In this document: positions 26,491 to 54,576 of the stretch, one piece after another
How the letters are laid out: every line of letters begins with the position of its first letter
Position numbering within the stretch: the first letter of the stretch is position 1
NCBI GenBank assembly: GCA_032718475.1
Contig: JAUCBJ010006869.1
Span: 1-64,000, forward strand
Reading direction: 5' to 3'
DNA from: Nemertoderma westbladi
Lineage: Eukaryota > Animalia > Xenacoelomorpha
Length of the DNA stretch: 64,000 nt
Made by a program: the position numbers and the translations under genes
The notes under the pieces: model-generated
Seen by the model: the letters and a program-made list of their open reading frames with translations, nothing else
Told to the model about the DNA's origin: nothing
Databases searched by the model: none

Positions 26491-27443
26491 TGCGACATTT
26501 TGGTCTTTCTGGAATCACTAAATGCCATTCAGCAACAAATACTAACTATTAATAGTAATGGAACTCCTGTCTTGACTGACCTTTAACGTGACAAAACGTC
26601 CTATGTTTCACTTTTATTCGTTATTTGTAATCGTTTTTTCGACTTAGGACAACTTACCACCTTAAGTATAAAGTTAGGACGTTTTACCATCCGTAGCCTT
26701 AACTTAGGACAACTGAAAATTTGCAAATAACTCCGTTAAACTGTTATTTTATCACTAATCCTTTGGTAGAAAGGAGGGAAATTCTATTTTATACCCGATT
26801 CACTCAAAACATGAATTTTGAGAAAATTTGACTTAGGACGTTTTACCACCCGCCCCACGAAATGGTCTAACACTAACAATACTGGAATACACTATGTAAT
26901 ACCAGCATACAGCAACACTGGAACTACTGTCTGACCAGTAAAACAAGGATATTGCTGAACTCGATGCTGATTTCTTCTTTCACCTAATATTATTAGCAGC
27001 ATATCAAGCAAACAGTCAAGGCGAACCCGAAGGCTCATCTTTCGATAGCTGCTACCCGAGTGTAGGGGTGGGCGCTACTCCTATCCCAAGATTTGCTGCC
27101 AAGATTGGTTATATCTGTTATATTTTTACTGTTTTCCGTGTGCTTTACAGTGTTTTCCATATGTTTTACTATGTTTTCCTAATTTGGCTAAATTAGGAAA
27201 ACACTATTATAATAGTAAAACAATAAAACATATGAAATACACTGTAAAGTACCCGGGAAACAGTAAAAATATTGATCAACAGGAAATTTAATACATCTAT
27301 TACACCGAATTGGTAATCTTAAATGTACTCCTCGCATAGCACACGATAAGTAATCTCTGTAAAACATAGGGAAAACATTATAAACCATCTGGAAACAGTG
27401 AAAAAAATGATCAGCATTAAATTTTACCTATTTGCTGCTAGAA

Positions 27444-28833: not shown

Positions 28834-30981
28834 CTATAGGCCGACTATTTTAAAATATGTACAATACAAGTAATATATTACGGATTATTTAAAATATAAT
28901 TAATCTCCTGTAAAGGTGCGGGGCTGTCTAAAAAAAATAAACGGCACTCAGTAAAATGGGGTTAAAAGGTCGGGCATGATGATAACACAGAGCGAAATGA
29001 AATAAAAAAACCAAATTAAAATTAAATAAATTCATTAAATATTCATTCATTTAATAAAATTTTATTTAAAACAAAAAATTTAAATTAAAAAAAATATAAA
29101 AATTATTTAATAAAACTATTTACTAATTTTTTTTACTAGATGAACCAGTTGTAAAACCATTCACCCCGCTGGGGGGGTATAGATTATTTTTATTATAATA
29201 TTGTCTATTTGGTCTACCACGAGCCGTTTTTATTTTTATTTCTGTTTTATTTTGAAGTGTTTACGTATCAAGGTCCATTTTTTTACATTTTAAACTTGAA
29301 TTATGTATAGCCTATTTACAGAACAATTTTAATAGAGTGTAATAATATTAATAATAATTTTAAAATAATCCCGGCTTTTAACTGTTTAATTCGACAAAAT
29401 TAGATATCAGTTTTAAAAATCTTCCCAGTTTAGTTCTACGAACTATTTTGGACAGTGCCATTCTTCTAACAGGGTTAGTGTATATGCGTCTCTATATTTG
29501 CTGAAGCAGGCGGGGTGCATCCAATAATCGAAATATGTTTTAAAACAAATCGGTATCGCACAATATGTATCATAGATTACGCGGGATTAGACTGTAATAA
29601 AGTTAAATATAGATGAAGGTTGATGGGAGGGCGGAGCCATTTGGTTGGAACAAGTGAGCTACGATTGGATGATTAATTACTGTTTTCCTATTGGCTTTGG
29701 CAGATCAGTTAGGGCTGTCACTAATGTTTTACTTAACTGTCTATGCCATATTGCTGTATTGCCTTACTCCTTTACTCAGTTCAGCAGTTACTGCAGTTTA
29801 GCAGTCTTTAGCTGTCTTCTGGCTGCCTGGTCACTGGTCTCTAGTTTATGTCGCTGTTTTTTCTTCTGTAATTGGTTGTCACTTTGGTTTTCAGGATTTA
29901 GTGTGATGGTGATGATATCACACTAGCAGACTAGAGCTGCTTTACAGTACTGCAGTCTGGCAGTAGATAGCTGGATAGTCCCATAGCACTAGCAGCATGG
30001 TCAGATCAGCAGATGGTTGAACCGTCACTGCGTCAATCTTCGGAGTAGGCCCTACCCCCTGCAGCCCTGCCCCTACCAGCCTACAGGCTGACTCTAACAC
30101 CCTGATAGGACAGGCAGGCAGACAGGAGGACGCCCTGACGCCGGGACTTGGACAACATGCTGACATGACACCAGTCTGCCAGTAACTGAGTAGGTAAGGT
30201 AAGTCTGTACTAGGTACAACAACAGCTGAACAGAACAAGCACAAGAGCAAAGAAGAAGGGCTGAAGGTGGAAGGGGTGAAGCCAGAGTTCGAAATTTGAC
30301 AATCAGACAATACTTCTTTAATTCTGTAATTAGGCCTAGGCCCCCAGACAGTTCAGCAGTTAGATTAGAGCCTCATGTCTTAAGAGTAGGGGGGAACCCA
30401 AATCGGCCAAATCCAAGAATCCACCTTACTGTCAGACTGTCAGGTAATGGGTAATCTGGTAATTGTGCCTTGGTCTGTTGGTGCCTGTGGTATTTTCAAT
30501 TTCCAATTTCCCCCTTCTAATTTTAATAGACTAATCTGCTAATAGAGCGTACCGGTACCCTAATAATAATAATGGCTGAATGGTACCGTAGGTACGCGCA
30601 CCCAACCCACCCACCCTACCCATAACATGCTAGACAAGCTATTCACATTTTGCTACTGTAAATTCCTTGCTGTACCACAGCGCTGTACCCTGGTAGGTGG
30701 TACCGTAGCCCTGTACCTCTAACATAACTCGTCTGCCTGTAGGCGTGTAGGCGTAGGGTTATTTTAAATCGTTTCAGATTAGCTGATATACATTCCACGT
30801 CGTTGCCAGTCCCAGTTGTAGATTGTACCGATAGTCTGATAGTATAGAACTGGCTGACTGGCACTGGCTATTGACTTGCAATACACTGATGATACAGTCC
30901 ACCCTGACACTACGGCAACGGCACTACTTGACTCATCACGGTCTCTGATTTAGTTGCAAAGAGTAGACGCAAGACAGGACG

Positions 30982-32760
30982 ATGGCTTCGATTCTACTGA
31001 GATCAACCGTTGTTGAACGAATAGCTCATCGTTTAGGAGTCCCGGTTGCCAGAGTGGCGTGCGAAATTCTCCCTCAACTTCCTGTAAAACCCGTTAACCA
31101 CCACTTTATAATGCAAATCAACACCCGCAAGATTCTAGAATCACAGTCTGTGGTTAGTCGAAAAGTCGCAACACGCGATACCTCAACTGTACCAGAATTA
31201 AATATTAATATTGTTTCGGAAGTCACTCCGTATTTTCCAGGAGGTGGATTTGTCCGTGAGAATTTTAATGTAATTGAATTTGCAGTGCCTTCTGATGAAA
31301 TAGCAACGGAATCTTACAAGGACCTATTCATTGAAAGCAATGGTATTGAAAACGATAATGCTTTACCGTCCTTAATAACTCCTTACATAGACAAACAAAG
31401 GATTGTTGTTGAATTCAGTTCTCCCAACATCGCAAAGCCTTTTCATGTGGGGCATTTACGTAGCACAATAATTGGCAATGCCCTGAGTAATCTTAACCAA
31501 GCTATTGGGCATAATGTTACTCGTATTAATTACCTAGGCGACTGGGGAATGCAATTGGGGATACTACTGTACGGTTATGCTAAATACGGGAATACAGATG
31601 AATTCGAGGCTTTTCCGATTAAACACCTTTTCAATATCTACGTTAAAGCCTATGGAGAGAGTCAGCACATAGAAACAGTGGCCGAAGAAGCGAAAAATTA
31701 CTTTATAAAATTAGTGAACGGTGACCCTGAAATGCGTAAGTTATGGGAAGGTTTTAAAGAGTTAAGCGTTGCAGAGTACGGTAAACTTTACGAACGGTTG
31801 GGAGTTCGTTTCGATGAATATTCGGGGGAGAGTTTGTACGACTCGGCCGCTATAGAATTAGTTAAATATTTCGATTCTCAGTCGCAACTACTTTACGATG
31901 GTGATGGTTCGGCCACCTTGCAACTTAACGCTGTAGGCGGAACGATAAATCCTACAGTCTGCCGAGACAACGGAATGTCTTTGTATCTCACTAGGGACGT
32001 AGCGGCCGCCCGTGATCGATTCAACAGGTTAAACTTCGACAGAATGCTTTACGTCGTAGATCAATCCCAGGCGGAACACTTCCAGAACTTATTTTTGAGT
32101 TTAAAGTTACTAGGGGAGGAATGGTGGTCGCGCTGCGAACACATTACCTTCGGTAAGATTAGAGGGATGAGCACCAGACTGGGTACCGTTGTATTCCTTG
32201 CAGACGTTCTTGAGGAAGCAAAGGAAAGGGCCCTTAATATAATCAATATGAAGTCCACTACTAAAGTCAACTTTTCGGAGGTGGAAGAGGCGGCAGAGAG
32301 ATTGGCGACTTCCGCAATCATTCTGTTCGATTTGAAACACGGGAGGATTAAGAACTACGCCTTCGATTGGGAGGCCGCGTTAACTTTTGCGGATTATTCG
32401 GGAGTTACTCTTCAGTACACCCACGCTAGGATACACAATTTACTGCTGTATAACGACTTCGATCCATCCTCGGTACCAGAGGGTCTAACATTCGTAACCC
32501 CCGAGGAACTATCACTCCTTTACTATCTGAGTTTCTACGAGACTTACGTGGTTCGATCGGGTTTGTTCTCCGATCCCGCCCAACTCGCTCGCTATCTGAC
32601 TTACCTTTGTAAACTCATCAATAGATTTTACCGCGAGGTCAAAATTCGTGATTCGCCCGACCCTCTGAAACGATCCCGTTTAGTTTTATTAAATCGCGCC
32701 GTTTCTGTTTTGGCCGGCGGTATGAAGATATTGGGAATAGTTCCTCTCAATAAATTGTAG
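30982..32760 (+). CDS. RARS2: Arginyl-tRNA synthetase, mitochondrial type, intronless, 592 aa
   Basis: VVEFSSPNIAKPFHVGHLRSTIIGN (HIGH), INYLGDWG, YLTRD, YVVD..Q..HF, GMSTR, LQYTHAR; C-terminal DALR-like domain ending LGIVPLNKL. Confidence 0.93.
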   Translation: MASILLRSTVVERIAHRLGVPVARVACEILPQLPVKPVNHHFIMQINTRKILESQSVVSRKVATRDTSTVPELNINIVSEVTPYFPGGGFVRENFNVIEFAVPSDEIATESYKDLFIESNGIENDNALPSLITPYIDKQRIVVEFSSPNIAKPFHVGHLRSTIIGNALSNLNQAIGHNVTRINYLGDWGMQLGILLYGYAKYGNTDEFEAFPIKHLFNIYVKAYGESQHIETVAEEAKNYFIKLVNGDPEMRKLWEGFKELSVAEYGKLYERLGVRFDEYSGESLYDSAAIELVKYFDSQSQLLYDGDGSATLQLNAVGGTINPTVCRDNGMSLYLTRDVAAARDRFNRLNFDRMLYVVDQSQAEHFQNLFLSLKLLGEEWWSRCEHITFGKIRGMSTRLGTVVFLADVLEEAKERALNIINMKSTTKVNFSEVEEAAERLATSAIILFDLKHGRIKNYAFDWEAALTFADYSGVTLQYTHARIHNLLLYNDFDPSSVPEGLTFVTPEELSLLYYLSFYETYVVRSGLFSDPAQLARYLTYLCKLINRFYREVKIRDSPDPLKRSRLVLLNRAVSVLAGGMKILGIVPLNKL

Positions 32761-33786
32761 ATTATCTATGAATATGAACTACCTTTAACGAATTATAATG
32801 AATATTAATTAAAATTATATTTGCAATATTGAATAGTTCAGTATGTTTTAAATGTTCGTCCTTTTGAGTACAGTGGCTTTAAGCCGTTTCCCAAATATCT
32901 ACGTGTACCAGGTTTTGTTGAAAGAAATAATTTGTCACCATCGGAATCCAGGAATGTCCATAAATATAATTTGCGGCGACGAGTGGAATCCGTGCGACTT
33001 ACAGTTACAGTACAGGCGCTTTACCCCTTGGCTACCGATTTTGTAGTAAATAGCCGTACCGGTAGTAATATTATAACGTTTCGCTGATGTTGGCTTATAG
33101 CTATGCTGCGTAAAGGCCTCTGTTATAGTTTGGTTATAAGTTTTTGTTTGTTAACATCGAATTCATAAATCTAAAAATGAAGGCATTTGTAAGTTTTTCA
33201 CTGCCCCTTTATTGTAGAATTGGTAATGCCGTTTTTAATTACGATTGTGTGCTCTTTGAACACTAAATTTTCATACGTTATTAAACATTAATATTTTTAT
33301 TAAATGTTGTGATTTTCTCTAATATTCTAACAATTTATTTCACTATTTTGGTCAGGTATTCTTTAAATTAGGTATTTTGTCTTTCGTTGGCAATTTATTT
33401 CTCTCTTTATGTATTATTATACTATAATTTTAATATCGTATACCTGCAGGTTACATTGTTTTGACATCCATTTGTCTGATATCATGATTTATAGTAATAA
33501 ATATATATGTCAACAAGATATCATAGTGATATTAAATTCCGATATTATTTTAGAAGGGGATTTCCAATTTAATTTCATCAGTATAAACACAGGAAGTATT
33601 GCAATATTAATTTTATTAATACTAATACTTTGTAATTATATTTGTATTTCGTACCGGTACCTTTTTTAGTGGTAATTGTAACTTATTTATCTATGCAATA
33701 TATATATATACCTAGTTACATAAATTATTGTATCAATTCTGTGCTTTACTAAGTAAACTATCTATACACAATAACTGATCGGAACA

Positions 33787-33939
33787 ATGGCGAAGTTATA
33801 TGAGATGATTCCACCCAGACACCTGGGAGTCGATGAGAATACTTATATTCCAGAACGTAAAGGAATACGAGGTGTTCTTTTGGGACCGCCTGGGGCTGGT
33901 AAAGGTACAGTGGCAACTCGACTGGCTAAAAAGTACCAA
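33787..33939 (+). CDS. AK2: Adenylate kinase 2, exon 1 (51 codons; not in the ORF track)
   Basis: Translates MAKLYEM...KGIRGVLLGPPGAGKGTVATRLAKKYQ (P-loop) and is followed directly by donor GTAAGT at 33940. Confidence 0.93.
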
Positions 33940-36900
33940 GTAAGTTAATTTTATTCTCGCTGTGATATTTAATATTTTAATTTGAAGAAACAGTTTGCTT
34001 CTAGTTAAAATTTTGCAAAAATGTTATAATACCGGTACTATGTTTTCATTACTGGGAAAAAATTACTAACTATGTTTTCCAATCTTTCCCCGTACATGTA
34101 TCGTATGTATACCGTTCCGTTTTATGTTCTTCTTTCTGCGTCCCTCTCGGTTTACAATTATCTATCCTCTCCGTATTTTCCATCTATTCCCTTTGGTTTG
34201 CCATCTACTTCGCATAGGTTTGCCATTTACACCGTTCTCGGTTTGCCATCTACCACGTCTAGGTTTACCATTTATACCGTTCTAAATTTACCATCTATCT
34301 CGTCCTAGATATACCATTTATCCCCGCTAGATTTGCTATCTATCCCGTTCTAAGTTTGTCAGCTATTACCTCGGGGTTTACCAGCTAGCCCGTTCTAGGT
34401 TTCCTATCTATATCTCACCCTAGGTTTGCTATCTATATCTCGTCTTAGGTTTGCCATATATCCCATCTAGATTTGCCATTTACACCGTATAGATTTGCCA
34501 CCTACCCATATAGGTTTGTCATCTACCCCGTTTTAGGTTTGTCAGCTATTCCCTGCAGGTTTGCCTCTGTTCTTGGTTTGCCATTTATCCCGATGTTGGT
34601 TTGCCATTCATCCCATTCTAGGTTTTCCATTTATCCTGTTCTTGGTTTGACATTTATCCCGGTCTAGGTTTGCCATTTATCCCGTTCTAGGTTTGTCATT
34701 TATTCTGTTCTTGGTTTGCCATTCATCCCATTCTAGGTTTGCCATTTATCCCATTCTAGGTTTGCCATTTATCCCGTTCTAGGTTTGTCATTTATTCTGT
34801 TCTTGGTTTGCCATTCATCCCATTCTAGGTTTGCCATTTATCCCATTCTAGGTTTGCCATTTATCCCGTTCTAGGTTTGTCATTTATTCTGTTCTTGGTT
34901 TGCCATTCATCCCATTCTAGGTTTTCCATTTACCCTGTTCTTGGTTTGCCATTCATCCCATTCTAGGTTTGCCATTTATCCCGTTCTAGGTTTGTCATTT
35001 ATTCTGTTCTTGGTTTGCCATTCATCCCATTCTAGGTTTGCCATTTATCCCGTTCTAGGTTTGTCATTTATTCTGTTCTTGGTTTGCCATTCATCCCATT
35101 CTAGGTTTGCCATTTATCCCATTCTAGGTTTGCCATTTATCCCGTTCTAGGTTTGTCATTTATTCTGTTCTTGGTTTGCCATTCATCCCATTCTAGGTTT
35201 GCCATTTATCCCGTTCTAGGTTTGTCATTTATTCTGTTCTTGGTTTGCCATTCATCCCATTCTAGGTTTGCCATTTATCCCATTCTAGGTTTGCCATTTA
35301 TCCCGTTCTAGGTTAGCCATTTATCCCGTCTATGTTTGCCATTTATCCCGTTCTAGGTTTGTCATTTATTCTGTTCTTGGTTTGCCATTTATCCCGTTCT
35401 TGGTTTGCCATTCATCCCATTCTATGTTTGCCATTTATCCCGATGTTGGTTTCCCATTTATCCCAATCAAGGTTTGCCATTTATCCTGTTCTTGGTTTGC
35501 CATTCATCCCGTTCTAGGTTTGTCATTTATTCTGTTCTTGGTTTGTCATTTATTCTGTTCTTGGTTTGCCATTCATCCCATTCTAGGTTTGCCATTTATC
35601 CCATTCTAGGTTTGCCATTTATCCCGTTCTAGGTTTGTCATTTATTCTGTTCTTGGTTTGCCATTCATCCCATTCTAGGTTTGCCATTTATCCCGTTCTA
35701 GGTTTGTCATTTATTCTGTTCTTGGTTTGCCATTCATCCCATTCTAGGTTTGCCATTTATCCCATTCTAGGTTTGCCATTTATCCCGTTCTAGGTTTGTC
35801 ATTTATTCTGTTCTTGGTTTGCCATTCATCCCATTCTAGGTTTGCCATTTATCCCGTTCTAGGTTTGTCATTTATTCTGTTCTTTGTTTGCCATTCATCC
35901 CATTCTAGGTTTGCCATTTATCCCATTCTAGGTTTGCCATTTATCCCGTTCTAGGTTTGTCATTTATTCTGTTCTTGGTTTGCCATTCATCCCATTCTAG
36001 GTTTGCCATTTATCCCGTTCTAGGTTTGTCATTTATTCTGTTCTTGGTTTGCCATTCATCCCATTCTAGGTTTGCCATTTATCCCGTTCTAGGTTTGCCA
36101 TTTATCCTGTTCTTGGTTTGCCATTCATCCCATTCTATGTTTGCCATTTATCCCGTTCTAGGTTTGTCATTTATCCCGATGTTGGTTTGCCATTCATCCC
36201 ATTCTAGGTTTGCCATTTATCCCGTTCTAGGTTTGTCATTTATTCTGTTCTTGGTTTGCCATTCATCCCATTCTATGTTTGCCATTTATCCCGTTCTAGG
36301 TTTGTCATTTATTCTGTTCTTGGTTTGCCATTCATCCCATTCTATGTTTGCCATTTATCCCGTTCTAGGTTTGTCATTTATTCTCTTCTTGGTTTGCCAT
36401 TCATCCCATTCTAGGTTTGCCATTTATCCCGTTCTAGGTTTGTCATTTATTCTGTTCTTGGTTTGCCATTTATGCTGTTCTTGGTTTGCCATTCATCCCA
36501 TTCTAGGTTTGCCATTTATCCCGTTCTAGGTTTGTCATTTATCCCGATGTTGGTTTGCCATTCATCCCATTCTAGGTTTGCCATTTATCCCTTTCTAGGT
36601 TTGTCATTTATTCTGTTCTTGGTTTGCCATTCATCCCATTCTAGGTTTGCCATTTATCCCGTTCTAGGTTTGTCATTTATTCTGTTCTTGGTTTGCCATT
36701 TATCCTGTTCTTGGTTTGCCATTCATCCCATTCTATGTTTGCCATTTATCCCGTTCTAGGTTTGCCATTTATCCCGTTCTAGGTTTGTCATTTATTCTGT
36801 TCTTGGTTTGCCATTCATCCCATTCTATGTTTGCCATTTATCCCGTTCTAGGTTTGCCATTTATCCCGTTCTAGGTTTGTCATTTATCCCGATGTTGGTT

Positions 36901-39900
36901 TGCCATTCATCCCATTCTAGGTTTGCCATTTATCCCGTTCTAGGTTTGTCATTTATTCTGTTCTTGGTTTGCCATTCATCCCATTCTAGGTTTGCCATTT
37001 ATCCCGTTCTAGGTTTGTCATTTATTCTGTTCTTGGTTTGCCAATCATCCCATTCTATGTTTGCCATTTATCCCGTTCTAGGTTTGCCATTTATCCCGTT
37101 CAAGGTTTGTCATTTATTCTGTTCTTGGTTTGCCATTCATCCCATTCTATGTTTGCCATTTATCCCGTTCTAGGTTTGTCATTTATTCTGTTCTTGGTTT
37201 GCCATTCATCCCATTCTATGTTTGCCATTTATCCCGTTCTAGGTTTGTCATTTATTCTGTTCTTGGTTTGCCATTTATCCTGTTCTTGGTTTGCCATTCA
37301 ACCCATTCTATGTTTGCCATTTATCCCGTTCTAGGTTTGCCATTTATCCCGTTCTAGGTTTGTCATTTATTCTGTTCTTGGTTTGCCATTCATCCCATTC
37401 TATGTTTGCCATTTATCCCATTCTAGGTTTGCCATTTATCCCGTTCTAGGTTTGTCATTTATTCTGTTCTTGGTTTGCCATTCATCCCATTCTAGGTTTG
37501 CCATTTATCCCATTCTAGGTTTGCCATTTATCCCGTTCTAGGTTTGTCATTTATTCTGTTCTTGGTTTGCCATTCATCCCATTCTAGGTTTGCCATTTAT
37601 CCCGTTCTAGGTTTGTCATTTATTCTGTTCTTGGTTTGCCATTCATCCCATTCTAGGTTAGCCATTTATCCCGTTCTATGTTTGCCATTTATCCCGTTCT
37701 AGGTTTGTCATTTATTCTGTTCTTGGTTTGCCATTTATCCCGTTCTTGGTTTGCCATTCATCCCATTCTATGTTTGCCATTTATCCCGATGTTGGTTTCC
37801 CATTTATCCCATTCAAGGTTTGCCATTTATCCTGTTCTTGGTTTGCCATTCATCCCGTTCTAGGTTTGTCATTTATTCTGTTCTTGGTTTGTCATTTATT
37901 CTGTTCTTGGTTTGCCATTCATCCCATTCTAGGTTTGCCATTTATCCCATTCTAGGTTTGCCATTTATCCCGTTCTAGGTTTGTCATTTATTCTGTTCTT
38001 GGTTTGCCATTCATCCCATTCTAGGTTTGCCATTTATCCCGTTCTAGGTTTGTCATTTATTCTGTTCTTGGTTTGCCATTCATCCCATTCTAGGTTTGCC
38101 ATTTATCCCATTCTAGGTTTGCCATTTATCCCGTTCTAGGTTTGTCATTTATTCTGTTCTTGGTTTGCCATTCATCCCATTCTAGGTTTGCCATTTATCC
38201 CGTTCTAGGTTTGTCATTTATTCTGTTCTTGGTTTGCCATTCATCCCGTTCTAGGTTTGTCATTTATTCTGTTCTTGGTTTGTCATTTATTCTGTTCTTG
38301 GTTTGCCATTCATCCCATTCTAGGTTTGCCATTTATCCCATTCTAGGTTTGCCATTTATCCCGTTCTAGGTTTGTCATTTATTCTGTTCTTGGTTTGCCA
38401 TTCATCCCATTCTAGGTTTGCCATTTATCCCGTTCTAGGTTTGTCATTTATTCTGTTCTATGTTTACCATTTATCCCGTTCTAGGTTTCCCATTTATCCC
38501 GTTCTATGTTTCCCATTTATCCCGTTCTTGGTTTCCCATTTATCCCGTTCTAGGTTTCCCATTTATCCCGTTCTATGTTTCCCATTTATCCCGTTCTTGG
38601 TTTCCCATTTATCCCGTTCTTGGTTTACCATTTATCCCCGTCTAGGTTTCCCATTTATCCCGTTCTATGTTTGCCATATATCCCGTTCTAGGTTTGCCAT
38701 TTATCCCGTTCTAGGTTTGTCATTTATTCTGTTCTTGGTTTGCCATTCATCCCATTCTAGGTTTGCCATTTATCCCGTTCTAGGTTTGTCATTTATTCTG
38801 TTCTTGGTTTGCCATTCATCCCATTCTAGGTTTGCCATTTATCCCATTCTAGGTTTGCCATTTATTCTGTTCTTGGTTTGCCATTCATCCCATTCTAAGT
38901 TTGCCATTTATCCCGTTCTAGGTTTGTCATTTATTCTGTTCTTGGTTTGCCATTCATCCCATTCTAGGTTTGCCATTTATCCCGTTCTAGGTTTGTCATT
39001 TATTCTGTTCTTGGTTTGCCATTCATCCCATTCTAGGTTTGCCATTTATCCCATTCTAGGTTTGCCATTTATCCCGTTCTAGGTTTGTCATTTATTCTGT
39101 TCTTGGTTTGCCATTCATCCCATTCTAGGTTTGCCATTTATCCCGTTCTAGGTTTGTCATTTATTCTGTTCTTGGTTTGCCATTCATCCCGTTCTAGGTT
39201 TGTCATTTATTCTGTTCTTGGTTTGTCATTTATTCTGTTCTTGGTTTGCCATTCATCCCATTCTAGGTTTGCCATTTATCCCATTCTAGGTTTGACATTT
39301 ATCCCGTTCTAGGTTTGTCATTTATTCTGTTCTTGGTTTGCCATTCATCCCATTCTAGGTTTGCCATTTATCCCGTTCTAGGTTTGTCATTTATTCTGTT
39401 CTTGGTTTGCCATTCATCCCATTCTAGGTTTGCCATTTATCCCGTTCTAGGTTTGTCATTTATTCTGTTCTTGGTTTGCCATTCATCCCATTCTAGGTTT
39501 GCCATTTATCCCATTCTAGGTTTGCCATTTATTCTGTTCTTGGTTTGCCATTCATCCCATTCTAGGTTTGCCATTTATCCCGTTCTAGGTTTGCCATTTA
39601 TCCCGTTCTAGGTTTGTCATTTATTCTGTTCTTGGTTTGCCATTCATCCCATTCTAGGTTTGCCATTTATCCCATTCTAGGTTTGCCATTTATCCCGTTC
39701 TAGGTTTGTCATTTATTCTGTTCTTGGTTTGCCATTCATCCCATTCTAGGTTTGCCATTTATCCCGTTCTAGGTTTATCATTTATTCTGTTCTTGGTTTG
39801 CCATTCATCCCATTCTAGGTTTGCCATTTATCCCATTCTAGGTTTGCCATTTATCCCGTTCTAGGTTTGTCATTTATTCTGTTCTTGGTTTGCCATTCAT

Positions 39901-42900
39901 CCCATTCTAGGTTTGCCATTTATCCCGTTCTAGGTTTGTCATTTATTCTGTTCTTGGTTTGCCATTCATCCCATTCTAGGTTTGCCATTTATCCCGTTCT
40001 AGGTTTGCCATTTATCCTGTTCTTGGTTTGCCATTCATCCCATTCTAGGTTTGCCATTTATCCCGTTCTAGGTTTGTCATTTATTCTGTTCTTGGTTTGC
40101 CATTCATCCTATTCTAGGTTTGCCATTTATCCCGTTCTAGGTTTGCCATTTATCCTGTTCTTGGTTTGCCATTCATCCCATTCTATGTTTGCCATTTATC
40201 CCGTTCTAGGTTTGTCATTTATTCTGTTCTTGGTTTGCCATTTATCCTGTTCTTGGTTTGCCATTCATCCCATTCTATGTTTGCCATTTATCCCGTTCTA
40301 GGTTTGCCATTTATCCCGTTCTAGGTTTGTCATTTATTCTGTTCTTGGTTTGCCATTCATCCCATTCTATGTTTGCCATTTATCCCATTCTAGGTTTGCC
40401 ATTTATCCCGTTCTAGGTTTGTCATTTATTCTGTTCTTGGTTTGCCATTCATCCCATTCTAGGTTTGCCATTTATCCCATTCTAGGTTTGCCATTTATCC
40501 CGTTCTAGGTTTGTCATTTATTCTGTTCTTGGTTTGCCATTCATCCCATTCTAGGTTTGCCATTTATCCCGTTCTAGGTTTGTCATTTATTCTGTTCTTG
40601 GTTTGCCATTCATCCCATTCTAGGTTAGCCATTTATCCCGTTCTATGTTTGCCATTTATCCCGTTCTAGGTTTGTCATTTATTCTGTTCTTGGTTTGCCA
40701 TTTATCCCGTTCTTGGTTTGCCATTCATCCCATTCTATGTTTGCCATTTATCCCGATGTTGGTTTCCCATTTATCCCATTCTAGGTTTGCCATTTATCCT
40801 GTTCTTGGTTTGCCATTCATCCCGTTCTAGGTTTGTCATTTATTCTGTTCTTGGTTTGTCATTTATTCTGTTCTTGGTTTGCCATTCATCCCATTCTAGG
40901 TTTGCCATTTATCCCATTCTAGGTTTGCCATTTATCCCGTTCTAGGTTTGTCATTTATTCTGTTCTTGGTTTGCCATTCATCCCATTCTAGGTTTGCCAT
41001 TTATCCCGTTCTAGGTTTGTCATTTATTCTGTTCTTGGTTTGCCATTCATCCCATTCTAGGTTTGCCATTTATCCCGTTCTAGGTTTGTCATTTATTCTG
41101 TTCTTGGTTTGCCATTCATCCCGTTCTAGGTTTGTCATTTATTCTGTTCTTGGTTTGTCATTTATTCTGTTCTTGGTTTGCCATTCATCCCATTCTAGGT
41201 TTGCCATTTATCCCATTCTAGGTTTGCCATTTATCCCGTTCTAGGTTTGTCATTTATTCTGTTCTTGGTTTGCCATTCATCCCATTCTAGGTTTGCCATT
41301 TATCCCGTTCTAGGTTTGTCATTTATTCTGTTCTTGGTTTGCCATTCATCCCATTCTAGGTTTGCCATTTATTCTGTTCTTGGTTTGCCATTCATCCCAT
41401 TCTAGGTTTGCCATTTATCCCATTCTAGGTTTGCCATTTATCCCGTTCTAGGTTTGTCATTTATTCTGTTCTTGGTTTGCCATTCATCCCATTCTAGGTT
41501 TGCCATTTATCCCGTTCTAGGTTTGTCATTTATTCTGTTCTTGGTTTGCCATTCATCCCGTTCTAGGTTTGTTATTTATTCTGTTCTTGGTTTGTCATTT
41601 ATTCTGTTCTTGGTTTGCCATTCATCCCATTCTAGGTTTGCCATTTATCCCATTCTAGGTTTGCCATTTATCCCGTTCTAGGTTTGTCATTTATTCTGTT
41701 CTTGGTTTGCCATTCATCCCATTCTAGGTTTGCCATTTATCCCGTTCTAGGTTTGTCATTTATTCTGTTCTTGGTTTGCCATTCATCCCATTCTAGGTTT
41801 GCCATTTATTCTGTTCTTGGTTTGCCATTCATCCCATTCTAGGTTTGCCATTTATCCCATTCTAGGTTTGCCATTTATCCCGTTCTAGGTTTGTCATTTA
41901 TTCTGTTCTTGGTTTGCCATTCATCCCATTCTAGGTTTGCCATTTATCCCGTTCTAAGTTTGTCATTTATTCTGTTCTTGGTTTGCCATTCATCCCATTC
42001 TAGGTTTGCCATTTATCCCATTCTAGGTTTGCCATTTATCCCGTTCTAGGTTTGTCATTTATTCTGTTCTTGGTTTGCCATTCATCCCATTCTAGGTTTG
42101 CCATTTATCCCGTTCTAGGTTTGTCATTTATTCTGTTCTTGGTTTGCCATTCATCCCATTCTAGGTTTGCCATTTATCCCGTTCTAGGTTTGCCATTTAT
42201 CCTGTTCTTGGTTTGCCATTCATCCCATTCTATGTTTGCCATTTATCCCGTTCTAGGTTTGTCATTTATCCCGATGTTGGTTTGCCATTCATCCCATTCT
42301 AGGTTTGCCATTTATCCCGTTCTAGGTTTGTCATTTATTCTGTTCTTGGTTTGCCATTCATCCCATTCTATGTTTGCCATTTATCCCGTTCTAGGTTTGT
42401 CATTTATTCTGTTCTTGGTTTGCCATTCATCCCATTCTATGTTTGCCATTTATCCCGTTCTAGGTTTGTCATTTATTCTGTTCTTGGTTTGCCATTCATC
42501 CCATTCTAGGTTTGCCATTTATCCCGTTCTAGGTTTGTCATTTATTCTGTTCTTGGTTTGCCATTTATCCTGTTCTTGGTTTGCCATTCATCCCATTCTA
42601 GGTTTGCCATTTATCCCGTTCTAGGTTTGTCATTTATCCCGATGTTGGTTTGCCATTCATCCCATTCTAGGTTTGCCATTTATCCCGTTCTAGGTTTGTC
42701 ATTTATTCTGTTCTTGGTTTGCCATTCATCCCATTCTAGGTTTGCCATTTATCCCGTTCTAGGTTTGTCATTTATTCTGTTCTTGATTTGCCATTTATCC
42801 TGTTCTTGGTTTGCCATTCATCCCATTCTATGTTTGCCATTTATCCCGTTCTAGGTTTGCCATTTATCCCGTTCTAGGTTTGTCATTTATTCTGTTCTTG

Positions 42901-45176
42901 GTTTGCCATTCATCCCATTCTATGTTTGCCATTTATCCCGTTCTAGGTTTGCCATTTATCCCGTTCTAGGTTTGTCATTTATCCCGATGTTGGTTTGCCA
43001 TTCATCCCATTCTAGGTTTGCCATTTATCCCGTTCTAGGTTTGTCATTTATTCTGTTCTTGGTTTGCCATTCATCCCTTTCTAGGTTTGCCATTTATCCC
43101 GTTCTAGGTTTGTCATTTATTCTGTTCTTGGTTTGCCATTTATCCTGTTCTTGGTTTGCCATTCATCCCATTCTATGTTTGCCATTTATCCCGTTCTAGG
43201 TTTGCCATTTATCCCGTTCTAGGTTTGTCATTTATTCTGTTCTTGGTTTGCCATTCATCCCATTCTATGTTTGCCATTTATCCCGTTCTAGGTTTGCCAT
43301 TTATCCCGTTCTAGGTTTGTCATTTATTCTGTTCTTGGTTTGCCATTCATCCCATTCTATGTTTGCCATTTATCCCGTTCTAGGTTTGTCATTTATTCTG
43401 TTCTTGGTTTGCCATTCATCCCATTCTATGTTTGCCATTTATCCCGTTCTAGGTTTGTCATTTATTCTGTTCTTGGTTTGCCATTCATCCTATTCTATGT
43501 TTGCCATTTATCCCGTTCTAGGTTTGTCATTTATTCTGTTCTTGGTTTGCCATTTATCCTGTTCTTGGTTTGCCATTCATCCCATTCTATGTTTGCCATT
43601 CATCCCATTCTATGTTTGCCATTCATCCCATTCTAGGTTTGCCATTTATCCTGTTCTTGGTTTGCCATTCATCCCATTCTATGTTTGCCATTTATCCCGT
43701 TCTAGGTTTGTCATTTATTCTGTTCTTGGTTTGCCATTCATCCCATTCTAGTTGCCATTTATCCCGTTCTAGGTTTGTCATTTATTCTGTTCTTGGTTTT
43801 GCCATTTATCCTGTTGTTGGTTTGCCATTCATCCCATTCTATGTTTGCCATTCATCCCATTCTATGTTTGCCATTTATCCCATTCTAGGTTTGCCATTTA
43901 TCCTGTTCTTGGTTTGCCATTCATCCCATTCTATGTTTGCCATTCATCCCGTTCTAGGTTTGTCATTTATTCTGTTCTTGGTTTGCCATTCATCCCATTC
44001 TATGTTTGCCATTTATCCCGTTCTAGGTTTGCCATTTATCCTGTTCTATGTTTACCATTTATCCCCTTCTAGGTTTTCCATTTATCCCGTTCTAGGTTTT
44101 CCATTTATCCCGTTCTAGGTTTGCCATTTATCCTGTTCTATGTTTACCATTTATCCCCTTCTAGGTTTTCCATTTATCCTGTTCTTGGTTTGACATTTAT
44201 CCCGGTCTAGGTTTGCCATTTATCCCGTTCTAGGTTTGTCATTTATTCTGTTCTTGGTTTGCCATTTATCCTGTTCTATGTTTACCATTTATCCCCGTCT
44301 AGGTTTGCCATTTATCCTGTTCTATGTTTACCATTTATCCCCGTCTAGGTTTTCCATTTATCCCGTTCTAGGTTAGCCATTTATCCCGTTCTAGGTTTTC
44401 CATTTATCCCGTTCTAGGTTTGTCATTTATTCTGTTCTTGGTTTTGCCATTTATCCTGTTCTTGGTTTGCCATTCATCCCATTCTATGTTTGCCATTCAT
44501 CCCATTCTATGTTTGCCATTCATCCCATTCTAGGTTTGCCATTTATCCTGTTCTTGGTTTGCCATTCATCCCATTCTATGTTTGCCATTCATCCCGTTCT
44601 AGGTTTGTCATTTATTCTGTTCTTGGTTTGCCATTCATCCCATTCTATGTTTGCCATTCATCCCATTCTATGTTTGCCATTCATCCCATTCTAGGTTTGC
44701 CATTTATCCTGTTCTTGGTTTGCCATTCATCCCATTCTATGTTTGCCATTCATCCCGTTCTAGGTTTATCATTTATTCTGTTCTTGGTTTGCCATTCATC
44801 CCATTCTATGTTTGCCATTTATCCCGTTCTAGGTTTGCCATTTATCCTGTTCTATGTTTACCATTTATCCCCTTCTAGGTTTTCCATTTATCCCGTTCTA
44901 GGTTTTCCATTTATCCCGTTCTAGGTTTGCCATTTATCCTGTTCTATGTTTACCATTTATCCCCTTCTAGGTTTTCCATTTATCCTGTTCTTGGTTTGAC
45001 ATTTATCCCGGTCTAGGTTTGCCATTTATCCCGTTCTAGGTTTGTCATTTATTCTGTTCTTGGTTTGACATTTATCCCGGTCTAGGTTTGCCATTTATCC
45101 CGTTCTAGGTTTGCCATTTATCCTGTTCTATGTTTACCATTATCCCCGTCTAGGTTTGCCATTTATCCCGTTCTAG
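33940..45176 (+). other. AK2: AK2 phase-0 GT-AG intron, 11,237 nt
   Basis: Joining 33939 to 45177 gives ..RLAKKYQ|[12 protein letters not shown].., co-linear with AK2 family sequence (RLAENFCVCHLATGDMLRA in human). Confidence 0.88.
34064..34070 (+). promoter_or_regulatory. Consensus branch-point sequence TACTAAC
   Basis: Perfect match 124 nt after the donor, followed by a pyrimidine-rich stretch with no AG until 34216-34217. Confidence 0.55.
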
Positions 45177-45190
45177 GTTTGCCATCTATC
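34150..45190 (+). repeat. 23-bp tandem satellite, ~460-480 units, with 69/92-bp higher-order structure
   Basis: Units GTTTGCCATTTATCCCGTTCTAG, GTTTGTCATTTATTCTGTTCTTG and GTTTGCCATTCATCCCATTCTAG; degenerate at ~34150-34570; the last partial unit is the start of exon 2. Confidence 0.98.
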
Positions 45191-45764
45191 TACCGGCGAC
45201 ATGCTGCGAGCCGAGGCCCAATCCGGCTCCGAACTCGGACTCAAACTCAAAGCGGTTATGGACTCGGGTAAACTGGCCAGCGACGACCTGGTCCTCAGCC
45301 TCATAGACGACCATCTGAACCGACGAGAGTGCCGTAAAGGATTCCTATTGGACGGATTTCCGCGCACCATTCGCCAAGCCGAGGGCCTCGACTCACTCCT
45401 CGAGAAGCGATCGACTCCGTTAGACGCGGTAGTTGAGTTCGATATCGACCCGGAACTGTTACTCCGACGTATTACGGGTCGCCTCTTCCATCTACCCAGC
45501 GGTCGCACCTACCACGAGGAATTCTGCCCTCCCAACCGGCCTATGATTGATGACGTCACGGGGGAGCCGTTGACCAGACGTTCTGACGACAACGCCACCG
45601 CTTTACGGAAGAGACTCGCTACGTACCACGAACTGACTACCCCATTAGTCGGTTACTACAAGGATCGGGGTTTATTAAAGGTTATAGACGCGGCTAGGAA
45701 ACCCAATCAAATGTATAAAACTGTTAGCGGTATATTCGATACAGCAGTGGGCCGGGTCGGTTGA
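45177..45764 (+). CDS. AK2: Adenylate kinase 2, exon 2 (spliced protein 246 aa)
   Basis: [49 protein letters not shown]; preceded by CCCGTTCTAG. Confidence 0.95.
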
Positions 45765-47429
45765 TATACTAAATAAATGGATAATTACGATTTACTGATT
45801 GGTCATATAGACTTTTACTGATAGTTATTGTGTATCTAGGTAGCTGGTAGATGTTGATATTAATTCGCAGTTTGGTTACGGATTAAATTATGGTAGGAAT
45901 CTTAAAATCCGAAAGACTAATTTTTTATAAAATAATAATATTGTTTTAATAATTTAATAATGTTCAGGAGAAAATAAAACGAAACTATATAATCTTAAAA
46001 AACAATTATATACTAAAACTTTTATAATTTAATAAAATCTTTACTTTTTTCTTTACCTATTGGTCATATAGAGTTGGTTTTTGTGTTAAACATTCTAAAT
46101 ACATAATTATTTCAAAATTCCATTAAAACCACATGTAATATAAAAATGTAGTTACTAAACTAGCTCTAGGCTTTTTGACTGATCGATCGCTTATGAATAT
46201 TTTACTTTTGGATTTTAAGTTATCGGTAAGATTATTGTTAATTATTTGGCTTTTTGTTGTAACAAGAAACTACCCACATTAGGAGATAATAAATACATCC
46301 CACCGCGGGGCTGCGATAAACTTATGAGGCTTTCGGTTTTCCATTATCCACGCACTATGTCATCGGGTTTGTTAGGTCCCCGTAGCGACACCTATAGTAT
46401 TCTCTCGGTTGTTGTTGGTGTTGTTGTTAATTTCCAGTTGAGTTTTTGTTTTATAAGGCTTCAGTGACGAAGTTGGTAGAGCGCGAGACTTGGAATCTCT
46501 ATGTACCGAGTTAAATCCCACTTTCCGGTTAATTTTTTTTATAGTAAGATTGGTTAGTGAGGCAGTTGATGCGTTAGTAGACGCGGACCTCTGTGTTTAT
46601 CATTGGGCGGCCAAGTACAGTCGGTTTGAGCACTGTAGTAGCAGCATTCTGCGGTCCCCGCGGGGGGACATTTTCGCCTGTGATACCGGACTGAATATTT
46701 ACAAACCCCATAAAATCTTGACATTGACAATGCAATTCACCTCAAGCAAGGACCAATCAGAGAATAGCTAGTTGATTATCTGTAGTGATGAAGTAAAGTA
46801 AACAGAATAGAGTAAAGTTTTCATCTGTCACTAGGCCAGGGGTTACACATAAAGTCTGACGACTTAATTCCAGTGCCCCCCTCCCCCCTCAGAACTATAC
46901 TCCCCAAAGGAAACTCCAGTACTCATTTACCCACCACTTAAGGGTGCAAGGTAGAGGTGCGCCCTGGCTGCTGAGACCATATGTGGTGTTGGGAGGAATA
47001 CACCACTTCCAAAAACGCCAGGCGATATCGGCACATTTAAATAAATAAACTGTGGCTGAGCTGTGAATACAAATGTACTGAGTAGGTCGCGTTTCAGTCT
47101 ACCGTCCTCACACTTTCCCCAACTTACTTAGAAAGCATCGCATGGAGTTTGTAATTGGGAGGCGCGGGGGGGGGGGGGGGGGGGGGTTAGAAATCCCATA
47201 TCGGCGAATTAATAATATCACGTCTTGATGTTAAATTTATAATCATAATTTTGATAGGGTCGAAACTCACTCCCTATCTCTAGGAATTGGGATGAGCGAT
47301 GGTTCTGAGTGTTCGAAGATGCATAGATGATATCTATATTTAAATTATGTAAAAATAATCAAAATACTGTACGTCAAACAATGTAAAGGTATTGTCCAAC
47401 ATAAGATAGGGCATTTCCACAAAAAATGG

Positions 47430-47960: not shown

Positions 47961-48876
47961 TTCCAGAACTGTATTGTTTATATGCATTTAGGTCTACTAC
48001 TAAATACTAGGCCCTAAAACTTCAAGACTCTTTGTCCATATTATGATTTTCAATAATAAAATGATTAAATATATAAAAATAGTTTTAAATAATTCTCAAT
48101 TAATAACTCATTTATTCAACGCAATCTGATGTCAAAATTCCAGTATTTGCGTAGATTTAAAGAAAAACTTTCAAAAATTGAGAATGTCCGTAACGTCCGA
48201 CACCATATACAGTAGGATTCCCTAAAACTTTGCAGCTTATTTCCTTATTTTCTAAGGGGGGTGTGAAAATTTGGAAATAAAATGGAAATGGAAATAATAA
48301 ATGGGAATGAGTTGATTTGAAAACGAATAAAAACATAAAAAAATTAAACGAAAAAATATTAAAAAAAATAAATATGTCACGCCAATAATTTAATACAGCA
48401 ATATTAATTTACCCAATGCCATACAGTACAGTAGTTTTTTATTAATAAATTTTACAATTTTTCCATCACATAATCGGAACTAAGAAGATGGCAATCTCGT
48501 TTGAAAACTATGTTTTAAAGAAATTATTGGTCATATAATTCAAATATTCAAAGTCATTACTTGAGGAATCTTTAATCCCATTTGTTGCAGAACCTTGATT
48601 CTGTTGAAACTTTTTTTGGTGTTGTGACTTTTATTGTATTGGAATTAGAGTTCCTTCATGCTAATACTAAATATGACAATTTAACAAAAGTCGTATTTCC
48701 CGTGACCTCTCAAAAATGTGATTAGGAGGCTACTGTTACTTTGCAGCAGTGCTAACGAATTCCATAGAAACTGTTTTATTATTATCAATAATAATTATAA
48801 TAAATAATCAGGTTAATTTTCGCTAATCCTGTATAGCAACTTAATTGATTGATGCTGTACCTGTAGTTTTTTACTG

Positions 48877-51111
48877 ATGGCTCTAAAGTTACGCCCAATA
48901 ATATTATCATTTACTAAAGAGGTTATTCGCAAACGGCCGAAAAATATTCCAGAATTCGCTATACATTACTTCGAAAATTTATTAGCCGATGTTGGAGTGA
49001 CTGAAGAACGACCCAGACAAAGGCCATCATACGCCACTACAAAGACGATACGCCCACCCCAGGTACTCTTGAGTTTAATACTGGAATCTTTTACTACAGA
49101 AGTTTTTCGTAATCGACCAGATAATATTCCAGAATTTGCTTTAGATTATTTTGAAAATTTGTTGACCGAAGTCAACGCGGTAGAAGAACGATCCGGTATG
49201 CGGCAGCATGACGCCACGAAAACGGCATTGCGGCTGCTCGAATGTCGGCCGATCTTGCGGCGAATCCACACGCAACCACCACGATCGCGTAGAGTTGTTG
49301 ACGCAATATCAGAGGACAATCGCAATAAAGAAATCGCAGCTGCTATAAAGATTCAATCACTGGTTCGTGGGCATCTGACGCGATTGAGTTTGCAACGTTC
49401 TAGAAGATTCGTTGGTATGGGCAACAAAATGGATACTAGTGGCCCTCTTAGCAAAGAAACTGCAGCTGCTATAAAGATTCAATCATTGGTTCGTGGCCAC
49501 CTGACGCGATTGAGTTTGCAACGTTCTAGAAGATTCGTTGGTATGGGCAACAAAATGGATACTAGTGGCCCTCTTAGCAAAGAAACTGCAGCTGCTATAA
49601 AGATTCAATCATTGGTTCGTGGGCACCTGACGCGATTGAGTTTGCAACGTTCTAGAAGATTCGTTGGTATGGGCAACAAAATGGATACTAGTGGCCCTCT
49701 TAGCAAAGAAACTGCAGCTGCTATAAAGATTCAATCATTGGTTCGTGGCCACCTGACGCGATTGAGTTTGCAACGTTCTAGAAGATTCGTTGGTATGGGC
49801 AACAAAATGGATACTAGTGGCCCTCTTAGCAAAGAAACTGCAGCTGCTATAAAGATTCAATCATTGGTTCGTGGGCACCTGACGCGATTGAGTTTGCAAC
49901 GTTCTAGAAGATTCGTTGGTATGGGCAACAAAATGGATACTAGTGGCCCTCTTAGCAAAGAAACTGCAGCTGCTATAAAGATTCAATCATTGGTTCGTGG
50001 CCACCTGACGCGATTGAGTTTGCAACGTTCTAGAAGATTCGTTGGTATGGGCAACAAAATGGATACTAGTGGCCCTCTTAGCAAAGAAACTGCAGCTGCT
50101 ATAAAGATTCAATCATTGGTTCGTGGGCACCTGACGCGATTGAGTTTGCAACGTTCTAGAAGATTCGTTGGTATAGGCGACAAAATGGATACCAGTGGCC
50201 CTCTTAGCAAAGAAACTGCAGCTGCTATAAAGATTCAATCTTTGGTTCGTGGCCACCTGACGCGATTGAGTTTGCAACGTTCTAGAAGATTCGTTGGTAT
50301 GGGCAACAAAATGGATACTAGTGGCCCTCTTAGCAAAGAAACTGCAGCTGCTATAAAGATTCAATCTTTGGTTCGTGGGCACCAGACGCGATTGAGTTTG
50401 CAACGTTCTAGAAGATTCGTTGGTATGGGCGACAAAATGGATACCAGTGGCCCTCTTAGCAAAGAAACTGCAGCTGCTATAAAGATTCAATCATTGGTTC
50501 GTGGCCACCTGACGCGATTAAATGTACAATATTCTAGAAGATCCGTTGGCATGGGCGACAAAATGGATACCAAAGGCCTTGTAGAAATATCGCAAGTTGA
50601 ACAACAGGCAGCGACTCCTCTCCCATATTCAGAAGACTCAAAAAACATGTCTTTCCGAGAATGTAATATATTGCAAAGAAAAAGGAAATCTATGGGACTG
50701 TCAGAGTCGGCGGTTTATTTAACGTCTTTGCCGGATATTCCTGCAGAAGTTTACGAACGGGCGGCTTCTGTAATTCAGAACGAGGTTCGCACGTATTTGG
50801 CGCAAAAGTCCGGCTCTTCTCATCGCAAGATGATTCACAGCTATCACGCGGTACCGTACCAGTATAAACGGCACTCCGAATCGCATGCGACGTCTATCAT
50901 AGAGCGAGGAGGTCAGGGCCATTCGGTTGGCATGGGAGTCTCGCCATCACTTACGCAATGGGAGCGCGAGAGTGAGGCGGCAGTGCGGATACAGGGCAGT
51001 GTGAGAGGTTATCTTACCAGGAAGAACATCTTATCAATGAAACAGCAATTAAAAGGGGACCAGAGGAGAGTTTCTCTCGCTAAACTTAATAGTTGTCATA
51101 CTAAACAATAA
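48877..51111 (+). CDS. SPA17-like protein: two RIIa D/D-like domains + 10 tandem IQ repeats + 2 further IQ motifs, 744 aa
   Basis: FTKEVIRKRPKNIPEFAIHYFENL and FTTEVFRNRPDNIPEFALDYFENL; AAIKIQSLVRGHxTR x10; IQNEVRTYL and IQGSVRGYLTRK. Confidence 0.85.
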   Translation: MALKLRPIILSFTKEVIRKRPKNIPEFAIHYFENLLADVGVTEERPRQRPSYATTKTIRPPQVLLSLILESFTTEVFRNRPDNIPEFALDYFENLLTEVNAVEERSGMRQHDATKTALRLLECRPILRRIHTQPPRSRRVVDAISEDNRNKEIAAAIKIQSLVRGHLTRLSLQRSRRFVGMGNKMDTSGPLSKETAAAIKIQSLVRGHLTRLSLQRSRRFVGMGNKMDTSGPLSKETAAAIKIQSLVRGHLTRLSLQRSRRFVGMGNKMDTSGPLSKETAAAIKIQSLVRGHLTRLSLQRSRRFVGMGNKMDTSGPLSKETAAAIKIQSLVRGHLTRLSLQRSRRFVGMGNKMDTSGPLSKETAAAIKIQSLVRGHLTRLSLQRSRRFVGMGNKMDTSGPLSKETAAAIKIQSLVRGHLTRLSLQRSRRFVGIGDKMDTSGPLSKETAAAIKIQSLVRGHLTRLSLQRSRRFVGMGNKMDTSGPLSKETAAAIKIQSLVRGHQTRLSLQRSRRFVGMGDKMDTSGPLSKETAAAIKIQSLVRGHLTRLNVQYSRRSVGMGDKMDTKGLVEISQVEQQAATPLPYSEDSKNMSFRECNILQRKRKSMGLSESAVYLTSLPDIPAEVYERAASVIQNEVRTYLAQKSGSSHRKMIHSYHAVPYQYKRHSESHATSIIERGGQGHSVGMGVSPSLTQWERESEAAVRIQGSVRGYLTRKNILSMKQQLKGDQRRVSLAKLNSCHTKQ
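49327..50575 (+). repeat. 126-bp (42-aa) coding tandem repeat, 10 copies
   Basis: Unit starts at 49327, 49453 ... 50461; near-identical at the DNA level. Confidence 0.97.
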
Positions 51112-53680: not shown

Positions 53681-54576
53681 AAATTAATTTTAATGATATT
53701 TTTTTTTATAATAAAAATTTTTTTAAATAATTTTTTACAATGTATAATTCGCGGACACGGCGGGGTGACTACAAAAACAAAGACCCAATTATAAAGACCT
53801 GCATAATCTTGTTACATGTGTTAACTTTCGTTAATTGTTTTGAATCCCCCGTCACGCCTCTGTAACTTGCTCCTTTACTAACCTGCTCCTTTAAATAGCA
53901 ATGGTACATAACGCTCATTGTGACCTGTACAAAACAAAGAGGTAAAGTCGCGTTACGTCCCAAAGAGCATTAGGTTCCAAAGAGCTTTAGGTCCCATTGC
54001 CAGAGAGCGTGAGGTCACATTGCCATTTAAAGGAGCAGGTTAGTAAAGAAGCAGGTTACAGAGGCGTGTTGGGGAACCAAAACAATAAACGAAAGTTAAC
54101 ACATGTGTTTTGTATTTGTACAGGTCTTTATTATTTGGGTCGTTGGTCTTTGTTTTGTAGTCACCCGACACTGCGGTGTTGCGTGGGGGCCACCAATCCA
54201 CCCACCCACACTCAACTCCCAACTTCCTGGACACTAGGATACTGAGTGAAAGCGTCTGAAACTACTACATGAACTCCATGACAGACTATGGGCTAGCGAC
54301 TAGGGACTGGCGCCGTTGAACTGAACATGTAAACTGTAGTACCTATCACTGTACCACCTACCTAAAAGTGACCTGTGGGACCAGCCCATTATTAGTGAGG
54401 TCGGCATTTCTCTTTATCCTGCCGCTCTCTTTGTATTACAATAGCATACAGCTAACCAATGGCAATGGTCTACCCTCAGTGCGGGAAAGACAAGCTGGCT
54501 ACCATTGAAATGAATAGGGGAAGGATAATATGGATAATACTTCAATAAACACCACTCAGCTACCCACATCCTATCG

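Follow-up and report, generated by a model that had tools for sequence, protein, structure and literature searches.

An 11-kb intron of the AK2 gene in Nemertoderma westbladi built from tandem copies of its own acceptor junction

How is the proper 3′ splice site found when the intron in front of it is filled with copies of that very site? This question is raised by a gene for adenylate kinase 2 (AK2) of the xenacoelomorph Nemertoderma westbladi. The gene lies in a stretch of 64,000 nt (assembly GCA_032718475.1, contig JAUCBJ010006869.1, positions 1 to 64,000, forward strand), which is called the window in the following. Its only intron has a length of 11,237 nt (33940-45176), begins with GTAAGT and ends with TAG, and about 99% of it is a 23-nt satellite. 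At the level of assembled contigs, the dominant RNA was shown to be spliced at the last AG of this intron.

Structure of the AK2 gene and its intron array

The coding part of exon 1 (33787-33939, plus strand, 153 nt, ATG at 33787) comprises 51 codons including the P-loop and covers positions 1-21 of the ADK profile. Exon 2 (45177-45764, plus strand), which is the last exon, adds 195 codons and the stop. Both exons are open and joined in phase 0, and their product has 246 amino acids, as the first-pass annotation of this DNA had proposed. In all eight homologues aligned, out of 120 listed, the two exon pieces aligned end to end without gap or overlap. The product contains an ADK core with P-loop and lid (Pfam ADK 7e-45, ADK_lid 3e-12), and the best matches of the exon 2 protein, with 60-67% identity across many phyla, are of the animal AK2 type, several of them being named adenylate kinase 2. 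From the domains, the best matches and the contiguous alignment, rather than from a tree, the gene is assigned to AK2, a family located in the mitochondrial intermembrane space. At 33895-33939 the protein reads GKGTVAT after the P-loop, where the eight aligned homologues have GKGTQA(P/V), so that a usually conserved glutamine is replaced.

The satellite was identified by Tandem Repeats Finder (TRF) as a repeat of period 23 with 477.5 copies (34215-45185). Cutting the intron unit by unit backwards from the acceptor yielded 478 units between 34196 and 45176, of which 461 have a length of 23 nt. They comprise 69 distinct sequences, and five variants account for 348 units. The unit is composed of the 14 nt that open exon 2, differing at one synonymous position, and the last 9 nt of the intron, and it is in register with the exon; the last unit (45154-45176, plus strand), defined by the unit cut and the spliced contigs, terminates on the real acceptor TAG. 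Its head matches the start of exon 2 in register at 13 of 14 positions, with a chance probability of about 1.6e-7. Both the composition of the unit, including the one mismatch, and the number of about 470 tandem copies given in the first-pass annotation are borne out by these results.

The same annotation had expected hundreds of near-identical decoy acceptors. This holds for the 264 of the 477 upstream units that keep the AG at the acceptor position, but not for all of the roughly 470 copies, and strict identity to the real site is rarer: 108 decoys are identical to it over the 23 nt upstream and only 17 from -23 to +9. In 260 of the 264 decoys the AG is directly followed by GT (AG/GT, the slash marking the splice point here and below). 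These sites are spaced every 23-116 nt, and the nearest decoy AG is located 23 nt upstream of the real acceptor.

Along the plus strand the intron can be divided into parts of different age. The donor site and an AT-rich intron start (33940-34073) form a region of about 134 nt which is not clearly satellite, as its score was reached by 21 of 300 shuffles. The splice point is placed by the spliced contigs, and the donor GTAAGT agrees with the usual consensus at 8 of 9 positions. The first-pass estimate of an original intron of about 150 nt comes close to this length. It is followed by about five heavily decayed satellite units without a terminal AG (34074-34195), which extend the array in the 5′ direction to about 34074 with a score reached by none of 300 shuffles. 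The next 17 units (34196-34575), delimited by unit-by-unit comparison, are old and diverged, with a mean identity to the consensus of 77%, and 13 of them keep the AG. In their majority sequence, the start of exon 2 is reproduced letter for letter over 14 nt. A C at unit position 10 is present in nine of these 17 units, as aligned, and in none of 455 young 23-nt units. The remaining part (34576-45176) is a homogenised array of about 461 units with 91% identity, as determined by the unit cut and an analysis of internal repeats. A higher-order pattern of three units is superimposed on it, and long internal duplications repeat stretches of up to 513 nt exactly, 0.3-6 kb apart.

A further observation concerns unit positions 16-17 within 34576-45176. 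They hold the only CpG of the unit and are its most variable spot, with C>T in 143 and G>A in 148 of 455 units. This is how methylated CpGs decay, and it suggests that the array is or was methylated.

The reality of the array was assessed with runs of the same organism from three studies, in the form of assembled contigs, not raw reads. The DNA run X3 contains a contig of 4923 nt that begins upstream of exon 1 and enters the array, and another of 1282 nt that leads from the last unit through exon 2. This run may be the source of the assembly and would then stand for another technology, not for another animal. Array contigs were also found in the DNA run X1. Among the contigs listed, the deepest array contig of X3 reached 85-115 times the single-copy depth, compared with a count of 85-95 in the window for the most frequent 31-mers. 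The assembled size therefore seems to be about right and the satellite not abundant elsewhere. In one bin, the array contigs had a summed depth of 21 (X1) and 36 (X3) times that of single-copy sequence, such sums not being copy numbers. No match to the unit head was found elsewhere in the window, and the unit pattern had no match in the metagenome contigs. A second allele with several substitutions and indels was observed in X1 at the intron start (33967-34098) and in the upstream 3′ untranslated region (33039-33156).

The array is genuine DNA and not an assembly artefact. An artefact, or a dead copy accompanied by an intronless AK2 expressed from another place, has next to no probability in our judgement. 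It would be helped by the possibility that X1 and X3 are themselves the source of the assembly, but short-read contigs enter the array from both flanks, and their depth fits its size. The spliced contigs described below do not differ from the window exons in a single letter over the pieces aligned. The join of exon 1 to exon 2 is absent from the contigs of both DNA runs, which speaks against an identical intronless copy.

Splicing at the last acceptor

None of the runs is recorded as RNA; X4 (study P3) and X2 (study P1) are RNA-like. X4, which bears a guessed DNA label, was judged to be poly(A) RNA from the poly(A) end of its arginyl-tRNA synthetase contig at 33536, the cover of exons only and the spliced junction. 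A 634-nt contig of X4 with a depth of 4674 runs unbroken from 33716 through exon 1 straight into 45177, and an 863-nt contig of X2 with a depth of 63.9 shows the same join. The exact junction 33939^45177, which had been singled out in the first-pass annotation, is thus present in both RNA-like runs examined, which come from two studies. The 5′ untranslated region covers 33716-33786 (plus strand), the start being approximate, as it is the point where the spliced X4 contig begins and contigs cannot fix the true start. The 3′ untranslated region (45765-45996, plus strand) contains AATAAA at 45973; its end is inferred from the length of the X4 contig, and the matched part is 45765-45950 only.

No joint or loose end to any decoy was found among the contigs listed for X4 and X2, which drop rare forms, and no X4 contig lies on array units. 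Besides the real acceptor the intron contains 279 AGs, of which 82 are in frame and 197 cause a frameshift. None of the 279 leads to the normal stop: in-frame decoy products stop at the latest at the TAG of the real acceptor itself, and the decoy 23 nt upstream of the real site gives a product of 101 amino acids. No decoy yields a normal AK2 protein.

Regarding the choice of the last AG, anchoring by the real last exon, combined with the decay of rare errors, is the explanation we consider probable. The splicing machinery would likely be anchored by the real last exon behind the last copy and not by the acceptor sequence itself. Pyrimidine tracts equal to or richer than that of the real site precede 248 of the 264 decoys, and only the real site precedes a last exon with a poly(A) signal. 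Downstream of the AG the purine fraction is 0.53 in exon 2 vs 0.29 in the array, from which GAA, GAG, GGA and AGA are absent. The decoys may remain silent, as behind each of them only more pyrimidine-rich satellite follows, which offers neither enhancer-like purine motifs nor a good donor or a poly(A) site. Where a decoy is used, truncated or frameshifted products would arise and then be degraded. The donor-proximal old units have not been purged of their AG, which is kept in 13 of 17, as expected if the choice does not start from the donor side.

Several points weigh against this explanation. A crude branch-point score places the real site in the top 7%, with 19 of the 264 decoys being equal or better, and local sequence may thus help in its choice. 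The enhancer argument leans on purine motifs of vertebrates. X2 contains an array contig with a depth of 38.6, corresponding to about 0.4-0.6 per copy or about 1% of the spliced depth, which may represent nascent RNA, DNA carry-over or mis-spliced RNA. Finally, contigs, from which the use of the last AG is read, drop rare forms.

Two other candidates were tried and rejected. A long-range pairing of the intron start with the real acceptor was no better than in shuffled sequences, 87 of 200 being as good. A unique local signal at the real acceptor was not found beyond the modest branch-point edge. The best branch-point candidate of the real site has a decoy TAG 17 nt behind it.

The AG/GT structure of the decoys also allows for a recursive ratchet, in which splicing to a decoy recreates a donor and the intron is removed stepwise until the last copy is reached. 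Apart from the GT behind 260 of the 264 decoy AGs, 102 joints read TAG/GTTTGT and thereby keep +5G and +6T, and such a mechanism would explain why so large an array is harmless. Recursive sites are reported to be enriched in large introns of invertebrates (PMC2773006). However, the AG/GT arises automatically, since exon 2 starts with a valine codon. The recreated donors match the usual consensus at only 5-6 of 9 positions vs 8 of 9 in the real donor, a comparison limited by the fact that the consensus may not reflect the donor tolerance of this organism. Moreover, the real mRNA junction carries the same weak GT and is evidently stable, and the four donor-proximal decoys with AG/AT would be dead ends. 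No intermediate was found among the contigs, although these could not be expected to show one. Taken together, we regard the ratchet as improbable. If it were true, the intron would be a ladder of about 260 zero-length AG/GT exons in which every mis-splice corrects itself, and acceptor repeats of this kind could grow without limit exactly where an exon starts with GT.

A third explanation assumes that decoys are used frequently and that their products are destroyed by nonsense-mediated or nuclear decay, in which case the array would be a true burden or a means of setting the AK2 output. It would be in line with the premature stop or frameshift produced by all 279 other AGs, with a nearest decoy only 23 nt away and with the presence of some array sequence in X2. 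Retention of one unit is described for the donor repeat of ABCA7, and 6-16 and CBS make use of adjacent pseudo-sites. Several points nevertheless make frequent decoy use rather unlikely. The usual decay route is triggered by a junction downstream of the stop, and none follows a stop in the last exon. The AK2 contig of X4 has a depth of 4674 vs 316 for the contig of the neighbouring arginyl-tRNA synthetase, which is a poor measure. Finally, a variant contig with a depth of 13.5 survived elsewhere in AK2 in X4 while no decoy junction did; dead-end branches may, however, be pruned differently. Anchoring by the last exon thus remains the preferred explanation.

Origin of the array and comparison with known junction repeats

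To judge from its units, the intron grew in place by amplification of its own acceptor junction, as the first-pass annotation had assumed. The growth is placed within this intron because the oldest units at the 5′ edge match the start of exon 2 exactly. The direction of copying runs from exon to satellite, because the first 14 nt of exon 2 code for the conserved VCHL(S) motif. Slippage and unequal crossing-over are the likely mechanisms. The first 23-nt duplication would have been tolerated by a shift of splicing to the exon-proximal copy, and repeated turnover may then have made the middle and the 3′ part uniform while the 5′ edge decayed. Most likely the array has no function of its own and is clutter that the gene tolerates. 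Pure neutrality is challenged by the acceptor A and G, both of which are among the seven most variable positions of the unit (p about 0.08, or 0.05 if the CpG pair is left aside, computed on copies that do not vary independently). This is a weak hint of selection against decoys.

Tandem repeats covering a border of intron and exon have been described before, and the comparisons below refer to those parts of the cited papers that were covered. In amphioxus such minisatellites, called mirages, occur in Adh3, the globin genes BflGb6 and BflGb9, troponin C and PGBD5 (PMC3087553, PMC3902484). In BflGb6 the intron 3′ end and the exon start are repeated in tandem with three and six units, and the Adh3 units have 10-72 bp. 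Numerous mirage units, though not every one, keep AG/GT, splicing is reported as normal, and the clusters undergo concerted evolution from which edge units are left out (PMC3087553, PMC3902484). The AK2 array resembles them in units spanning the border of the host intron and exon, in a partly kept AG/GT, in normal mRNA from the authentic site and in a homogenised interior with an excluded edge (77% identity in the 17 units at the 5′ edge vs 91% in the rest). Its unit length of 23 nt lies within the mirage range of 10-160 bp. It differs in its size, with 478 units in 11 kb compared with 3-6 units in BflGb6, in making up 99% of the only intron of its gene and in its occurrence in another animal lineage with apparently few introns. 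With four of five mirage features found, the AK2 array is a very large acceptor-side mirage and belongs to a kind already known. The fifth feature is a length that varies between haplotypes, on which only the summed depths of X1 and X3 given above bear, and these are not copy numbers.

In human genes, variable number tandem repeats (VNTRs) spanning a donor are known from F7 IVS7, 6-16, CBS IVS13, LAMIN B2 and PDGF (PMC1557585). In ABCA7, intron 18 contains a donor-side repeat of 25 nt that can reach about 427 units and a length of 10.7 kb, for which the retention of one unit is described (PMC5954066). As in AK2, a splice site is reiterated into the intron and the copy adjoining the real exon wins. 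However, these VNTRs repeat the donor, where the right site is transcribed first, whereas in AK2 the right site is the last of 265, and the AK2 contigs do not show the leakage to adjacent units that is known from ABCA7, 6-16 and CBS. The CBS 844ins68 variant (PMC2630376) also has a duplicated intron/exon junction in front of the real exon, with two copies of 68 bp instead of hundreds of 23 bp; splicing strongly prefers the distal copy, and normal mRNA is made. Its site is worded as a donor in this paper and as a 3′ splice site in the source cited there. Recursive ratchet points share the AG/GT core within a long intron, but they have the donor consensus gtaagt (PMC2773006), where the AK2 decoys have GTTTGC or GTTTGT.

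The first-pass annotation knew of no described case at such a scale. This statement has to be narrowed, since mirages as a kind are published and the donor-side repeat of ABCA7 reaches the same scale; for the acceptor side it stands within the literature covered. There, no acceptor-side array of such copy number and none with recursive splicing was found, the original Adh3 paper and the mirage supplements being outside this coverage, and the part of PMC10078293 covered contains no case of a repeat spanning a splice site. The AK2 array is thus likely to be unusually large and is the largest acceptor-side case in this literature.

An alternative origin would be a Rogers-type intron birth, in which the whole intron arose by tandem duplication of an exonic AG/GT and its donor end eroded later. 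Intron gain by AGGT tandem duplication was shown to work (PMC3265369) and has been proposed for mirages. As in such introns, the AK2 intron resembles its flanking exon and consists of a duplicated junction; satellite makes up about 99% of it, even its first 134 nt score slightly above shuffles (21/300), and the neighbouring genes in the window are single open reading frames (ORFs). In contrast, the mRNA junction is CAA/GTT and not AG/GT, and the near-perfect GTAAGT donor is unlike the unit head and lies outside the clear repeat. Of the nine positions in the tail of the unit, only four agree with the end of exon 1, and the old units show no drift toward this end. With a junction that lacks AG/GT and a donor that does not stem from the unit, the array most likely started from an intron already present, and the birth of the whole intron from the duplication is highly improbable. 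Growth of an existing intron at its acceptor is therefore preferred.

The orthologous intron was looked for in X6 and X7, which are runs of other organisms from the same study as X4. No contig matched exon 2 at 80% likeness, which is no proof of absence. A scan of metagenome contigs for AK2 gave 80 loci with 39-57% identity. Ten of them were inspected, and two of these, representing one fungal-looking gene, have introns, which lie at other positions and are uninformative for animals. This adenylate kinase gene (L012:2800-3700) carries short introns after GPPGAG and after CHL, the latter four codons from the position of the AK2 intron.

Neighbouring features and significance of the array

The neighbours of AK2 in the window encode a tetraspanin (11937-12812, plus strand), a synaptobrevin (21899-22297, minus strand), an arginyl-tRNA synthetase (30967-32760, plus strand) and a protein with RIIa and IQ motifs. 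Each consists of one ORF with full Pfam matches. Genes for tetraspanins, synaptobrevins and arginyl-tRNA synthetases usually have several introns in animals. The window thus suggests an intron-poor, repeat-rich genome. The best protein matches of the tetraspanin, with 56-57%, come from a hemichordate and amphioxus, and no close relative was found. The transcript of the arginyl-tRNA synthetase continues for about 780 nt past the stop to its poly(A) end at 33536, which is 180 nt before the first position of the AK2 transcript (region 32760-33716). The RIIa-IQ protein is encoded by a single ORF of about 745 amino acids (48853-51111, plus strand) with RIIa, many IQ motifs and ten near-identical coding repeats of 126 nt, and presumably resembles sperm protein 17 with an expanded IQ region.

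Two further arrays were observed. At 62312-64000 (plus strand) a 42-nt array with at least 41 copies runs past the window edge. Its unit contains the branch-point-like word TAAC, a stretch rich in T and the letters TTTTAG, behind which about 20 other bases follow. This array has the look of another acceptor mirage, with a host exon that would lie beyond the window, and the existence of 38- and 41-nt variants speaks against a coding repeat. The second is a 48-nt array with 22 copies (25051-26124), each unit of which has CAG/GT on the minus strand. It interrupts ORF pieces at 24583-26514 (minus strand), which we take to resemble the transposase of a DNA transposon. Other mobile elements are an apparently intact long interspersed nuclear element (LINE) at 1171-5792 (plus strand), with an ORF1-like frame and a 1100-aa endonuclease/reverse transcriptase, a further reverse transcriptase fragment at 54538-55755 and broken pieces at 57111-60092 (minus strand), presumably of a long terminal repeat (LTR) retrotransposon.

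The AK2 array shows to what extent an intron can swell through a mirage repeat, here by a factor of about 80 in an animal with apparently few introns. Junction arrays of this type break short-read assemblies and gene models. The locus is an extreme natural experiment on the choice of a 3′ splice site: a conserved housekeeping gene has 265 near-identical acceptors in its single intron, of which the correct one is transcribed last, and the use of any other ruins the protein. Models in which the first or donor-proximal site is taken predict failure at AK2. Exon-anchored and step-wise models both predict success and differ in the nascent RNA they would lead one to expect. The value of the AK2 array therefore lies in its use as a test bed for 3′ splice-site choice, and not in being a new kind of element.

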